Assembly: GCA_964415615.1 (NCBI GenBank) | Contig: CAYQAW010000006.1 | Coordinates: forward strand, 495 to 64,494 | Reading direction: 5' to 3' | Length of the DNA: 64,000 nucleotides | From: an uncultured Gammaproteobacteria bacterium | GTDB taxonomy: Bacteria > Patescibacteriota > Microgenomatia > Daviesbacterales > UBA10151 | In this document: piece after piece, positions 16,677 through 19,571 of the stretch | How positions within the stretch are numbered: the first letter of the stretch is position 1 | How the letters are laid out: every line of letters starts with the position of its first letter | The notes under the pieces: generated by a model | Database searches by the model: none | Told to the model about the DNA's origin: nothing | The model's input: only the letters and a program-made list of their open reading frames with translations | Translations under genes and position numbers: made by a program

Positions 16677-19571
16677 TCAGAGTATCACCGCCTTTGCTCT
16701 AATATCCTGGACGTTCCGCCACATGTAGTTTGATCCTAAAAAGTTTCTTTTATCAACAGGGTTTTTTACATAAATACCGAATGAGTAGTTATAGATAATC
16801 TGGTTATTTGAGAGCTGATTACCAGAGGCTCCAGAGAGCAAAAAGATTCCTATCCGGTTTTTTTCCAGTTTGTTGTTTTGGATGCTGTTAGTGTCAGTTT
16901 TAACATAAAGGGCATAACCATTGTGGCTTAGCTTATTGTTTGCAATGATATTGGTGTTGGCGTTGCTGTATAAATAGATACCATGAAGATTATTGTTGGT
17001 AATTTGATTGCTTAACAGAAAATTTGATACTGATTCCATATTAGCCCTGATCCCGCTCTTTGAGTTTTTGTAAATATTATTGTTTCTCACGATATTATTA
17101 CTGGAACGCCACAGAGTAACTCCATTTATGTTGCCATATAAAGTATTATTTTCGACTAGATTATAGTCGGATTTTTCATGCAGCATAATCCCGTGAAGTT
17201 TATTGTTGTAGGAGAGGTTGTTGCGGATAGTATTGTTGATGCAGCGTTTGGAAAAGATAATTCCATGGCTGCCGTTATCTCTGGCAATATTATTTTCTAC
17301 TAAAAAACCATTGGAATCGTCATGAGGGTCAAGTCCATAACGGATGTTTTCATAAAATTCATTTTCTCTCCACAGTATGCCTGTTGCCCCGAAGGTAAAT
17401 GCTCCAAAATAGTTGTGGTGGAATTTGCTGCCAATGATCTCACCAGTCAGCAATGTTGTATTCAGTTTGCCATTGCTCATTCTCCAGGAAACACCATAAG
17501 AAGACATGGTTAAATTTTCCGGCCTGGGAAATCCCAGGTAAGACAATTCTGAGTTATAAAAATCCATTCTTGACCCATCTTTTGCCAGAATAAAACTCCG
17601 GCCGTCTTCCAGGTTCAAGTCATAATCACTGGTATCTTCATCCCAGGAAGTGATTTTAACTTTATCTGTGTAAAGTATGCTATTGTAGGCCAGAATATGG
17701 ATATAGCCTGTTTTATTGCTGGATAATTTTAACCACTCAACTTCGTTGTTGTTAAGTTTTAGAGTTGTGCCAGAATGCAGAAGCAGATTAGCTTTTAAAT
17801 ACCATTGTTTCCCTGGATACTCCTGCAGGATTTTGTCTCCGGTTGCTTCCCTAATATCGGATAAAGTAAATTCCTGTCCCCGCCCAAAAAGATCAATTGT
17901 GTTCGTTTGCGAGTTATATAAAATTCTCCTTGGATCAGGATAAATTCTTTGGTAGTTAAAGTTTGCCTGGGGTTTTAAATGAGTGTCCTTGCCAGGAATA
18001 CTAAGCACAAATCCTTTTTCCAGTTTATTCCAGTTTGGCAGCCTGCTGAAGTTGGCATACAAAAGGTCCATGGGGTCAATGCCGGCTTCTGCTGCTATTT
18101 GATCAATACTATCCCCTTCTTTGACAATATATCTTGTTACAAGCAGGCCATTTGCTCCGGATGTTTGTGGTCCTTCTTTTGATAAATCTAAAGGTAAAGG
18201 TTGGTCATTTAAGGGAGCTAACATTTGTTGCTGGAGCAGCTGGGATTTGGCTTGAGGAATAAAATAGACTTGCTGTTTGTAAAAGAGCACTCCAGAGGCC
18301 ATAACGACCAAAGAGAGGCTGGTGGCAGTATAAGCAGGTACCTGTTGCAAAAACCTTAACCGCAACAGCCTGGATGTGTCCCATCTTGTCAGCCATCCTT
18401 GGGTATTTAAAGTAAAAAGGGCAAAGATATTGACAACAGCGCTGGCAAATGTAAACAGAACAAAAATAGGTAATAAAACAATATCAGCTGGTCTAATTAT
18501 TAGGTGTGGCATGAGTTTAATTAAACGGCTGCCAAACCACCAGATAAAGATTACCAGCGCTGCCAGATATAAACCTGTTGCCAGGGAGATAAAAAAATAA
18601 ATGGGGCTTAAAATAATAGCTAAACTGCGGAGGACTTTATCTATCTGAAAGAAAGCCAGAGCAGGATGGCGGAAAGGCCAGCCCTCTATTAAGGCTTTCA
18701 AATCTGCGCGTAAGCTGTTTCTTGTCCATCGCAGCCTTTGTTTCAAAAACGAAGAAAAGTTGGGCATGCCGGGGGTATATACATGGGCATTGCTTTGAAA
18801 TGCCACTTTAAAGCCTTTAGAAAGAACCAGATAAGTTAGCCTTTTATCATCTCCAGAGATAACAGGCGTACCCATGAATGTTTCATTTATCAGGTCATCA
18901 AGAAGCGGTAAGAGGATATTCCTGCGGTAAAAAGCGGTTCTTCCGGACAGACAAATCAAAGCATCTCCTGCTGCAGCCAGGAAAGGAAAATCATCATGAT
19001 AGCGGAGATTTAGCTGCATATTGAAGATTTTCTGCGCAAGTGTTTTAGGCTGCCAGACGCTTTGATAAGTTCCAACACCACCTACTTTAGGGTCGGCAAA
19101 AGGAGATAGGGTATTTCTCATGGTATCTTCAGACCAGAAAGTATCGCTGTCCACCAAAGCTACAATATCCCCTGTGGCTGCTTTGATACCGTCTACGAGC
19201 GCTTGTCTTTTTCCGGAATTGTAAGTAATCAGCAACTTTGCTCTGGGAAACCATCTTTGGATACTCTTGAAAACTGCAACACAATCTTTACTTGTGTAAT
19301 CAATGACTGCGATAATTTCCTTGGGCTGGTTGTTGATCCAGGAGATTAGGGCTTTGCAGAAAACTTGCGGATCTTCATTGTAGACCGGTGTTACAATTGA
19401 AACAGGGCAGTAGTAAAAATTGAGCTTGGGACGGTATTTTAAAGCGACCACTTCTTTAAATAGCCATATTGACCAGCGCCATATTCCAAAAATACCCAAC
19501 GGTATAAAGTATGAATGGGTGGCAATATACTGATATATTAGAAAAACAAAATCATCCCATAATACGGCCAT
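16677..19571 (-). CDS. Processive GT2 polysaccharide synthase fused to a LysM domain and a C-terminal parallel beta-helix domain
   Basis: GT2 motifs YNEDP, DSDT, QRLRWTRN plus TM helices; LysM YIVKEGDSIDQIAAEAGI; about 10 beta-helix coils such as NNTLYGNINGVTL. Confidence 0.75.
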   Translation of the reverse strand: MAVLWDDFVFLIYQYIATHSYFIPLGIFGIWRWSIWLFKEVVALKYRPKLNFYYCPVSIVTPVYNEDPQVFCKALISWINNQPKEIIAVIDYTSKDCVAVFKSIQRWFPRAKLLITYNSGKRQALVDGIKAATGDIVALVDSDTFWSEDTMRNTLSPFADPKVGGVGTYQSVWQPKTLAQKIFNMQLNLRYHDDFPFLAAAGDALICLSGRTAFYRRNILLPLLDDLINETFMGTPVISGDDKRLTYLVLSKGFKVAFQSNAHVYTPGMPNFSSFLKQRLRWTRNSLRADLKALIEGWPFRHPALAFFQIDKVLRSLAIILSPIYFFISLATGLYLAALVIFIWWFGSRLIKLMPHLIIRPADIVLLPIFVLFTFASAVVNIFALFTLNTQGWLTRWDTSRLLRLRFLQQVPAYTATSLSLVVMASGVLFYKQQVYFIPQAKSQLLQQQMLAPLNDQPLPLDLSKEGPQTSGANGLLVTRYIVKEGDSIDQIAAEAGIDPMDLLYANFSRLPNWNKLEKGFVLSIPGKDTHLKPQANFNYQRIYPDPRRILYNSQTNTIDLFGRGQEFTLSDIREATGDKILQEYPGKQWYLKANLLLHSGTTLKLNNNEVEWLKLSSNKTGYIHILAYNSILYTDKVKITSWDEDTSDYDLNLEDGRSFILAKDGSRMDFYNSELSYLGFPRPENLTMSSYGVSWRMSNGKLNTTLLTGEIIGSKFHHNYFGAFTFGATGILWRENEFYENIRYGLDPHDDSNGFLVENNIARDNGSHGIIFSKRCINNTIRNNLSYNNKLHGIMLHEKSDYNLVENNTLYGNINGVTLWRSSNNIVRNNNIYKNSKSGIRANMESVSNFLLSNQITNNNLHGIYLYSNANTNIIANNKLSHNGYALYVKTDTNSIQNNKLEKNRIGIFLLSGASGNQLSNNQIIYNYSFGIYVKNPVDKRNFLGSNYMWRNVQDIRAKAVIL

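Follow-up and report, generated by a model that had tools for sequence, protein, structure and literature searches.

A putative polyuronate synthase fused to a LysM module and an AlgG-type beta-helix in bacteria of the candidate phyla radiation

Results

A single reading frame joins synthase, LysM and beta-helix modules

We analyzed a window of 64,000 nucleotides of bacterial DNA (contig CAYQAW010000006.1 of assembly GCA_964415615.1) in which one minus-strand gene encodes a 964-aa protein combining a membrane glycosyltransferase of family 2 (GT2), a LysM module and a right-handed parallel beta-helix resembling uronate C5-epimerases. The gene lies in a small cluster with a nucleotide-sugar dehydrogenase and two genes related to alginate lyases:

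16677..19571, minus strand: open reading frame (ORF) of 964 aa with an ATG start, comprising GT2 synthase, transmembrane (TM) channel, LysM and C5-epimerase-type beta-helix
19552..20469, minus strand: 305-aa nucleotide-sugar 6-dehydrogenase, upstream of the synthase gene and overlapping its start by 20 nt
15635..16675, minus strand: BH346, a membrane-anchored or secreted beta-helix protein of 346 aa, alginate-lyase-like, beginning 1 nt after the synthase stop
14695..15663, plus strand: alginate lyase of polysaccharide lyase family 7 (PL7) with an N-terminal TM anchor and a Pro/Thr linker, convergent with the other genes (start at 14734 according to gene callers)

The initial annotation had described the gene product as one membrane protein of 964 aa, a reading to be abandoned if a hidden frameshift or stop divided the ORF. 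ORF listing and translation of 16677..19571 on the minus strand reveal no internal stop across the 964 codons, and the frame stands at that length; a plus-strand reading of the same interval, whose translation is full of stops, was rejected. Because the window is AT-rich (36.6% GC), an open frame of this extent is not a product of chance. The protein was found, identical throughout, on three further contigs assembled independently from different sequencing runs, and a homology search against 5.8 billion proteins (E ≤ 1e-10) returned 515 matches. The best 120 of these homologs, mostly 950-980 aa in length, present 51-89% identity and 87-100% query coverage, the latter reaching at least 98% in 116 of them. 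Identical copies in other assemblies and full-length homologs together exclude a hidden frameshift or an assembly chimera.

Public annotations of these relatives are generic ('glycosyltransferase', 'right-handed parallel beta-helix repeat-containing protein' and, once, for protein P0088, 'hyaluronan synthase'). Residue conservation was counted over the best 120 homologs, and revealed invariant positions (120/120) in the synthase half (D141, D143, G240, D242, K243, Q278, R281, W282, W393, T395 and R396, as well as W397) and in the beta-helix half (Y745, G746, D748, H750, D751, K775, R776 and N785). The invariance of catalytic residues indicates that both enzymatic halves are under strong purifying selection. 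Promoter and terminator scans of the cluster yielded hits at chance level and were uninformative, and the GC content of the cluster (0.38-0.42, with flanks at 0.35-0.37) provides no convincing sign of recent transfer.

The AlphaFold2 model of the protein, built on 50 family members, is confident (predicted local distance difference test, pLDDT, 88.4; predicted template modeling score 0.71). From the N- to the C-terminus, it displays a pair of helices, the GT-A domain, further helices spanning residues 303-385, a loop at 393-404, a helix at 403-450, the LysM fold and the beta-helix. The three domains named in the initial annotation are hence all present, in Pfam as well as in the model, but the beta-helix, first put at about 250 aa, occupies about 410 residues (549-961 in the model). 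Foldseek searches with the model returned hyaluronan synthases and AlgG as top matches, followed by cellulose and chitin synthases (BcsA, Chs1). The following features were mapped within the gene:

19443..19514, minus strand: N-terminal TM helix, residues 20-43, preceded by a short N-terminal helix free of Lys and Arg (hydropathy, model)
18684..19403, minus strand: GT-A catalytic domain, predicted cytoplasmic, residues 57-296, with D141-S-D143, G240-D-D-K243 and Q278-R-L-R-W282
18417..18665, minus strand: membrane and interface helices, residues 303-385, the presumed polysaccharide channel (hydropathy; helices 303-331, 335-359 and 361-385 in the model)
18366..18416, minus strand: gating loop, residues 386-402, TQGWLTRW, with the WxTR motif of hyaluronan, chitin and NodC synthases
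18222..18365, minus strand: last TM helix and predicted extracytoplasmic stalk, residues 403-450 (hydropathy; one 48-residue helix in the model)
17994..18137, minus strand: LysM, residues 479-526
16689..17927, minus strand: right-handed parallel beta-helix, predicted AlgG-type uronate C5-epimerase (or lyase), residues 549-961 (model, AlgG matches)
17316..17339, minus strand: catalytic motif Y745-G-L-D-P-H750-D-D, corresponding to YG(F/I)DPH(D/E) of mannuronan C5-epimerases
17244..17249, minus strand: K775/R776, aligned to the arginine of the AlgG 'SRE' motif
17208..17222, minus strand: NNLSY, containing N785

The synthase half resembles hyaluronan synthases and NodC

Pfam GT2 families match residues 57-346 above their cut-offs (PF13641, 2.9e-30), and the best GT2 match in NCBIfam is NodC (TIGR04242, 1.6e-31), at 109.6 bits against an equivalog cut-off of 550. 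In a PDB sequence search, residues 116-402 matched the hyaluronan synthases of Chlorella virus (CvHAS, 9e-15) and Xenopus (~1e-14), while Foldseek paired the model with hyaluronan synthase 7sp7 (3e-17, TM-score of about 0.6 on the target, 17-18% identity), its matches covering the entire chains of hyaluronan synthase, BcsA and Chs1. The sequence and fold features of processive GT2 enzymes are in place: the GT-A fold; the D, DxD, (G/T)(E/D)D and Q(R/Q)xRW motifs; and, after the catalytic domain, interface and TM helices and a WxTR gating loop, as seen in the model (helices 303-450), in Foldseek and in the CvHAS alignment. This alignment pairs GKRQAL with GKRESL, DSDT with DSDT, GDDKRLT with GDDRRLT and QRLRWTRN with QQTRWSKS of CvHAS, and sets GWLTRW against its gating loop AWGTRG. 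Helices 303-385 align with the TM region of hyaluronan synthase, and residues 393-404 have low pLDDT, as expected of a flexible segment. To judge from sequence and fold, the GT2 domain is a processive membrane synthase closest to class I hyaluronan synthases and NodC. No Alg8 entry appeared among its PDB or NCBIfam matches, and no direct comparison with Alg8 was made.

The N-terminal TM helix is predicted to run out-to-in, given the cytoplasmic GT domain that follows it. Beyond the gating loop lies a single hydrophobic helix (about residues 408-432), with R396, R401, R404 and R406 at its cytoplasmic side, and both the cytosolic position of the loop and the positive-inside rule would orient this last helix in-to-out. 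Since the WxTR loop must reach the cytoplasmic active site, like its cytosolic counterpart in solved hyaluronan synthases, and one helix follows it, LysM and beta-helix should lie outside the cell. In loci where the two enzymes are encoded separately (see below), the epimerase bears the same YGLDPHD motif behind an N-terminal signal peptide or anchor, and the BH346 and PL7 proteins both start with hydrophobic anchors. The topology proposed at the outset, with a cytoplasmic GT2 domain and the two other domains outside, is thereby supported, both by the exactly one TM helix after a cytosolic WxTR loop and by the signal peptides of unfused beta-helix homologs.

The predicted extracytoplasmic half combines a LysM module with an AlgG-type beta-helix

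The LysM assignment (PF01476, residues 481-526) is marginal in the single sequence, at 23.2 bits against a cut-off of 20.9, yet the module is a true LysM by its relatives, its consensus and its fold. Of 50 family members, 44 match PF01476 (best E 1.1e-11), the consensus of the family, RYxVxxGD...IAxKFGID...LLxAN...PG..LSIP, follows the canonical LysM pattern, and the model displays the beta-alpha-alpha-beta order of the domain (strand 479-482, helices 489-496 and 500-510, strand 522-525). LysM domains bind glycans containing N-acetylglucosamine (GlcNAc). A few fused members and all split versions of the family lack the module, indicating that it is accessory to the chemistry and not required for it.

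The C-terminal part of the protein matches Beta_helix/NosD in Pfam, and the best NCBIfam match of the whole protein is AlgG (NF038177, 7.6e-34, residues 580-867). AlgG is also the best PDB sequence match of residues 597-868 (4ozz, 1.3e-27, about 25% identity), and the structures superpose with a root-mean-square deviation of 2.4 Å over 365 columns (TM-score 0.71 on the target), 4nk6 being a further fold match. The match to AlgE4 is distant (about 1e-8), and all solved relatives of the domain are mannuronan epimerases. A right-handed beta-helix carrying the catalytic motif YGLDPHDD points to the mannuronan C5-epimerase superfamily, and the alignment to AlgG pairs YGLDPHDDS with YGIDPHDRS, HGIIFSKRC with HGIIISREV and NNLSYNNKLHG with RNKSHNNKLSG. 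The motif YG(F/I)DPH(D/E) is common to mannuronan C5-epimerases; in AlgE7 its His acts as catalytic base and its Tyr as catalytic acid (PMC8824271), and in AlgG DPHD is the proposed active site (PMC4436075).

AlgG-type modules are widespread in uncultured bacteria, with 385 representatives of 50%-identity clusters at E ≤ 1e-30, where they occur alone, in tandem or in giant multi-copy proteins. Proteins of 1200-1600 aa contain the module 4-5 times, and giant metagenome proteins of 3000-5600 aa (P0248, P0305, P0326, P0327, P0350 and others) contain 11-27 copies each, an organization that recalls the multi-module AlgE enzymes at a much larger scale.

The neighboring genes encode alginate-lyase-like proteins and a short dehydrogenase

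The PL7 neighbor belongs to its family, matching PF08787 at 1.5e-41 (143 bits against a cut-off of 29.7) and containing the RSELRE, QIH and YFKAGAYTQ motifs. For its catalytic domain, the match to the polyguluronate lyase 1uai of Corynebacterium has an E-value of 2.6e-70, with about 57% identity estimated by eye, and that to the solved glucuronan lyase 7nde one of only 1e-5. In many other loci the PL7 gene is co-directional with the synthase gene and located downstream of it. BH346 maps to Beta_helix/DUF1565/Chondroitinase_B in Pfam and is also Pel9A-like; its PDB sequence matches are solely an entry termed 'alginate lyase' (6kfn, 3.4e-5) and the PL6 alginate lyase BcAlyPL6 (2.6e-3).

The best PDB sequence match of the dehydrogenase is the GDP-mannose dehydrogenase AlgD of P. 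aeruginosa (1mfz, 2.2e-44), and its NCBIfam matches are the UDP-glucose dehydrogenases AglM and TuaD. The catalytic cysteine (Cys253, in GSCLPKD) is present and invariant in the family. Divergent from this gene, a plus-strand gene at 20511..21005 encodes a 164-aa cupin protein with a weak match to the C-terminal part of mannose-6-phosphate isomerase (9e-4). This protein could supply mannose-6-phosphate; its gene is not conserved in other loci.

The architecture is widespread in candidate phyla radiation genomes

To survey the locus we used one genome per species (GTDB representatives), which yielded 66 loci that were annotated by phmmer with the window proteins as queries:

54/66 loci: fused synthase-epimerase architecture
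56/66 loci: short dehydrogenase within 3 kb of the synthase gene
15/66 loci: PL7 gene near the synthase gene
16/66 loci: BH346-type beta-helix gene near the synthase gene
30/66 loci: PL7 or BH346-type gene
22/66 loci: protein of about 270 aa with a fibronectin type III (fn3) domain and TM helices, abutting the synthase start

Many contigs are short, and the counts of neighboring genes are hence likely to be underestimates. Taxa named among them are Microgenomates (Levy-, Curtiss-, Davies-, Ames-, Woese- and Roizmanbacteria), WWE3, Parcubacteria (Andersen-, Moran- and Staskawiczbacteria) and bins labeled Saccharibacteria. The synthase-LysM-epimerase architecture is not rare, but that of a large conserved family in genomes of the candidate phyla radiation (CPR). 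Many metagenome-assembled genome records with the gene, submitted as third-party assemblies (L010, L013, L015, L017, L018, L021-L023 and others), bear the title 'uncultured Gammaproteobacteria bacterium', which looks like a placeholder or wrong taxon name in view of the genes that they contain and of the similarity of their proteins to those of Microgenomates.

Synthase and epimerase are split in the remaining 12 of 66 loci (Chloroflexi, Dehalococcoidia, Peribacteria and a few CPR genomes), where the GT2 protein stands alone at 394-545 aa, with one instance of 783 aa. The dehydrogenase gene adjoins the GT2 gene in nearly all of these, and a separate beta-helix gene lies nearby in several. Conversely, in the 1308-aa protein P0007 the synthase-LysM-epimerase unit continues in frame into a BH346-type domain (59% identity over residues 975-1306). 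Such split and super-fused forms constitute Rosetta-stone evidence that the parts work together.

The fn3 protein, absent at the window locus, has a signal peptide, an fn3 domain and two to three C-terminal TM helices, and its gene abuts or overlaps the synthase start (for instance 7207-8004 in L006; also in L004, L005, L008, L011, L012, L014, L017, L019 and others). By analogy with BcsB or Alg44, it may be a co-synthase subunit. Several genomes (for instance at loci L004, L008, L015 and L030) harbor two paralogous synthase-LysM-epimerase genes in tandem, one following the fn3 gene and the other following the dehydrogenase gene, an arrangement worth noting in view of the small size of CPR genomes.

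Other genes in the window

Two genes for secreted metalloprotease-like proteins flank the cluster. The first (13895..14701, minus strand) encodes a 268-aa protein with a signal peptide and a QEVGHTLGLDHQD motif, and has no Pfam match; the second (22615..23508, plus strand) encodes a matrixin-like protein of 297 aa (PF00413, 3e-10) with a coiled-coil region. A restriction-modification pair on the plus strand (12209..13880) consists of a C5-cytosine DNA methylase (PF00145, 8e-102) overlapping a 202-aa ORF with a weak match to BsaWI-type endonucleases. The window also contains genes for the glutamine-fructose-6-phosphate aminotransferase GlmS (335..2125, plus strand), an archaeal-type phosphoenolpyruvate carboxylase (2408..3898, minus strand; PF14010, 1.5e-133) and a TspO/MBR protein (10490..10975, plus strand), together with seven scattered tRNA genes.

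Discussion

Relation to known synthase systems

The cluster recalls the alginate system of Pseudomonas and Azotobacter (AlgD, Alg8-Alg44, AlgG, AlgL), with which it shares a dehydrogenase, a membrane GT2 protein, a beta-helix of epimerase type with the DPHD motif, predicted here to be extracytoplasmic, and one or more clustered lyases. To our knowledge, alginate biosynthesis has been characterized only in Pseudomonas, Azotobacter and brown algae, and relies there on a multi-protein complex spanning the envelope. In the present system, by contrast, polymerase and epimerase form one polypeptide encoded in a three- to four-gene cluster, the lyases are of PL7 and beta-helix types, the dehydrogenase lacks a C-terminal domain, and the host is a CPR bacterium and not a gammaproteobacterium. 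Pfam detected no PilZ domain, as would mark an Alg44 co-polymerase, in 50 family members or in the neighboring genes of the window, and Pfam scans of the neighborhood found neither an outer-membrane export apparatus nor acetylation genes. Polymerization and modification are physically linked in the alginate system as well (PMC4436075).

Class I hyaluronan synthases (Chlorella virus HAS, Xenopus HAS1) and the NodC and chitin synthases share with the GT2 half the GT-A and channel fold and the GKR, DSD, GDD(K/R)RLT, Q..RW and WxTR motifs. The present protein differs from them in its low identity (17-18%), in having one helix after the gating loop and in a C-terminus that would exit the cell; we know of no hyaluronan, NodC or chitin synthase with a LysM or a polymer-modifying domain. 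The beta-helix half shares with periplasmic AlgG and secreted AlgE1-7 the right-handed fold, the YG(F/I/L)DPH(D/E) motif and a basic residue at the position of the AlgG 'SRE' arginine, and with bifunctional AlgE7 an Arg before the catalytic Tyr. At about 25% identity, it is tethered to a synthase through a TM helix and a LysM module, whereas AlgG and AlgE are soluble. A parallel in overall design is offered by synthase-modifier fusions of monoderm bacteria, for example MatB of Streptomyces, in which a GT2 is joined to an extracellular deacetylase. The design predicted here is the same, with a processive GT2 in the cytoplasm and, as part of the same membrane protein, a domain outside it that modifies the polymer; MatB, however, deacetylates poly-GlcNAc and is not known to contain a LysM, whereas C5-epimerization of a polyuronate is proposed here. 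We found no description of the synthase-LysM-epimerase family in the full-text literature that was searched; for soil Parcubacteria, 'a hyaluronan synthase' is merely listed among annotations (PMC6064768).

The claim of the initial annotation that this architecture departs from characterized alginate, cellulose and hyaluronan synthases is one with which we agree, even though the architecture has proved widespread in CPR genomes. Its proposal that a single polypeptide couples polymerization, export and extracellular modification gains support from an AlgG/AlgE-type domain with an intact catalytic motif, and the neighboring dehydrogenase and alginate-lyase-like genes fit a polyuronate product.

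A proposed polyuronate synthase-epimerase

Taken together, the sequence and model evidence makes it highly likely that the protein is a polyuronate synthase fused to a C5-epimerase or lyase. A polyuronate is suggested by four components, namely the AlgG-type epimerase, the PL7 lyase, the alginate-lyase-like beta-helix protein and the AlgD/UDP-glucose dehydrogenase-type dehydrogenase, of which three point specifically to alginate. An AlgG-type epimerase depends on a carboxylate adjacent to the C5 proton of its substrate. The locus would then probably encode a self-contained, synthase-dependent machine for a polyuronic acid, with a mannuronate/guluronate polymer of the alginate kind as the best candidate, and for the product itself we lean toward an alginate-like polymer.

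In the mechanism that we infer, including its topology, donor sugar (GDP-mannuronic or UDP-glucuronic acid), polymer, reaction outcome at the beta-helix (epimerization or cleavage) and LysM ligand, oxidation by the co-transcribed dehydrogenase would turn a cytoplasmic nucleotide sugar into the corresponding nucleotide-uronic acid. The GT2 domain would polymerize this donor, and the membrane helices of the same protein would form the channel through which the chain is threaded as it grows, with the WxTR gating loop opening and closing the active site. Beyond the final TM helix the polypeptide would continue outside the cell, where the LysM module would keep it within or alongside the peptidoglycan layer, unless it grips the chain instead. 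There, the AlgG-type beta-helix would take the C5 proton from uronates of the emerging polymer, converting mannuronate to guluronate, and may also cleave it, while the anchored PL7 lyase, of polyguluronate type, and BH346 would trim or release the product.

Several observations weigh against an alginate-making synthase-epimerase. The AlgG equivalog cut-off is far from reached (117.2 bits against 700), and with scores far under the cut-offs of both AlgG and NodC the protein is related to the two families but belongs to neither of them, nor, by curated thresholds, to hyaluronan synthase proper. The GT2 domain resembles enzymes that use UDP-sugars (hyaluronan synthase, NodC), which leaves the use of GDP-mannuronate unproven. 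By sequence, the UDP-glucose dehydrogenase of P. islandicum (3vtf, 1.1e-43) is nearly tied with AlgD as the closest relative of the dehydrogenase, and by structure it is slightly closer (TM-score 0.85). The dehydrogenase also lacks the C-terminal nucleotide-sugar-binding domain and retains only the NAD-binding (PF03721) and central (PF00984) domains. Lastly, a PL7 or BH346-type gene turned up at only about half of the loci, though short contigs are frequent among them.

The two-domain dehydrogenase departs from the three-domain organization of UDP-glucose and GDP-mannose dehydrogenases, its AlphaFold2 model ending after the central domain. Its best 120 homologs are all 296-349 aa long and contain PF03721 and PF00984 only, whereas its structural neighbors are all 377-466 aa long and the missing domain occurs in all solved UDP-glucose and GDP-mannose dehydrogenases. 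About 60 ORFs of the 64-kb window were scanned with Pfam, and none encodes this domain separately. Owing to the missing domain and the tie between AlgD and 3vtf, the substrate is uncertain; between GDP-mannose and UDP-glucose, sequence and structure yield a tie. One possibility is that the dehydrogenase binds its substrate in complex with the GT2 domain.

Alternative explanations

The affinities of the GT2 domain and the dehydrogenase lend some plausibility to a different polyuronate, glucuronan, a homopolymer of glucuronic acid made from UDP-glucuronic acid, which the beta-helix would convert to L-iduronate or cleave. The GT2 domain is closest to synthases that use UDP-sugars, the dehydrogenase is as near to 3vtf, its best structural match, as to AlgD, with AglM and TuaD as its NCBIfam matches, and family PL7 also includes glucuronan lyases. 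The PL7 neighbor, however, matches the polyguluronate lyase far better than the glucuronan lyase 7nde, the solved relatives of the beta-helix are all mannuronan epimerases, and BH346 matches alginate lyases; we consider glucuronan an unlikely product.

A second alternative concerns the beta-helix, which might act mainly as a lyase, serving as a built-in device for chain length or release. Epimerases and lyases of the beta-helix fold share one active site, and in AlgE7 Arg148, immediately before the catalytic Tyr, switches on lyase activity, the R148G variant being a pure epimerase (PMC8824271). The equivalent residue here, R744, is Arg in 95 and Lys in 8 of the 120 homologs, whereas AlgG has Val; this also weighs against a pure epimerase, and suggests that the domain could be bifunctional. 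The AlgE7 rule nevertheless stems from a distant subfamily, the best overall matches of the domain are pure AlgG-type epimerases, and the cluster already has one or two dedicated lyase-like genes. A PL7 lyase of polyguluronate type, furthermore, makes sense only with guluronate in the polymer, for which an epimerase is needed. There is thus a rather slim chance that cleavage is the main function.

A hyaluronan- or chitin-like synthase appears more improbable still. Under this alternative, the product would be a polymer of GlcNAc and glucuronic acid, with the LysM module binding the nascent chain and not peptidoglycan, and with the beta-helix modifying glucuronic acid. It would account for the best matches of the GT2 domain, to hyaluronan synthases and NodC (including GDD(K/R)RLT and WxTR), for the annotation of P0088 as 'hyaluronan synthase' by one source, and for the association of synthase and dehydrogenase, which follows the logic of hasA-hasB. 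Identity to hyaluronan synthases is nonetheless low and the NodC score (110 bits against 550) falls well short, no gene of hyaluronate-lyase type lies near the synthase gene, and both lyase-like neighbors and the fused epimerase belong to alginate-acting families. LysM is also lacking in some fused and all split members, and is therefore inessential to the chemistry.

That the fusion is an artefact of frameshift, mis-assembly or read-through, as the 12 loci with separate synthase and epimerase genes might suggest, can be dismissed as vanishingly improbable, since the ORF is identical in four assemblies, the AlphaFold2 model is confident throughout, and the same architecture, with linker, TM helix and LysM conserved, recurs at 54 of the 66 species-level loci and in over 500 database proteins.

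Implications

The alginate-like polyuronate synthase-epimerase remains our preferred reading. In its strongest form, which we put forward only tentatively, CPR/Patescibacteria (and, with the split form, some Chloroflexi and Peribacteria) would make genuine alginate via a fusion of a hyaluronan-synthase-like GT2 with an epimerase, without Alg8-Alg44 or control by cyclic di-GMP, and fed by a two-domain dehydrogenase. If a single polypeptide does polymerize, export and epimerize its product, no known synthase-dependent polyuronate system would be as compact, and it would constitute a natural experiment showing mechanical coupling of polymerization and modification. It would also be an attractive minimal chassis for tailored alginates, and its partner dehydrogenase, devoid of the domain that binds the substrate nucleotide, poses a separate enzymological puzzle. 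Were the product genuine alginate, the system would represent a further and far more compact version of alginate biosynthesis, and, speculatively, some of the 'alginate-like' exopolymers that have been reported for communities in groundwater and sludge might originate from it. For the family itself, the proposal would provide a function for a large, conserved and often duplicated group of genes in small CPR genomes, and a surface polyuronate in CPR bacteria could matter for host attachment or biofilm life.

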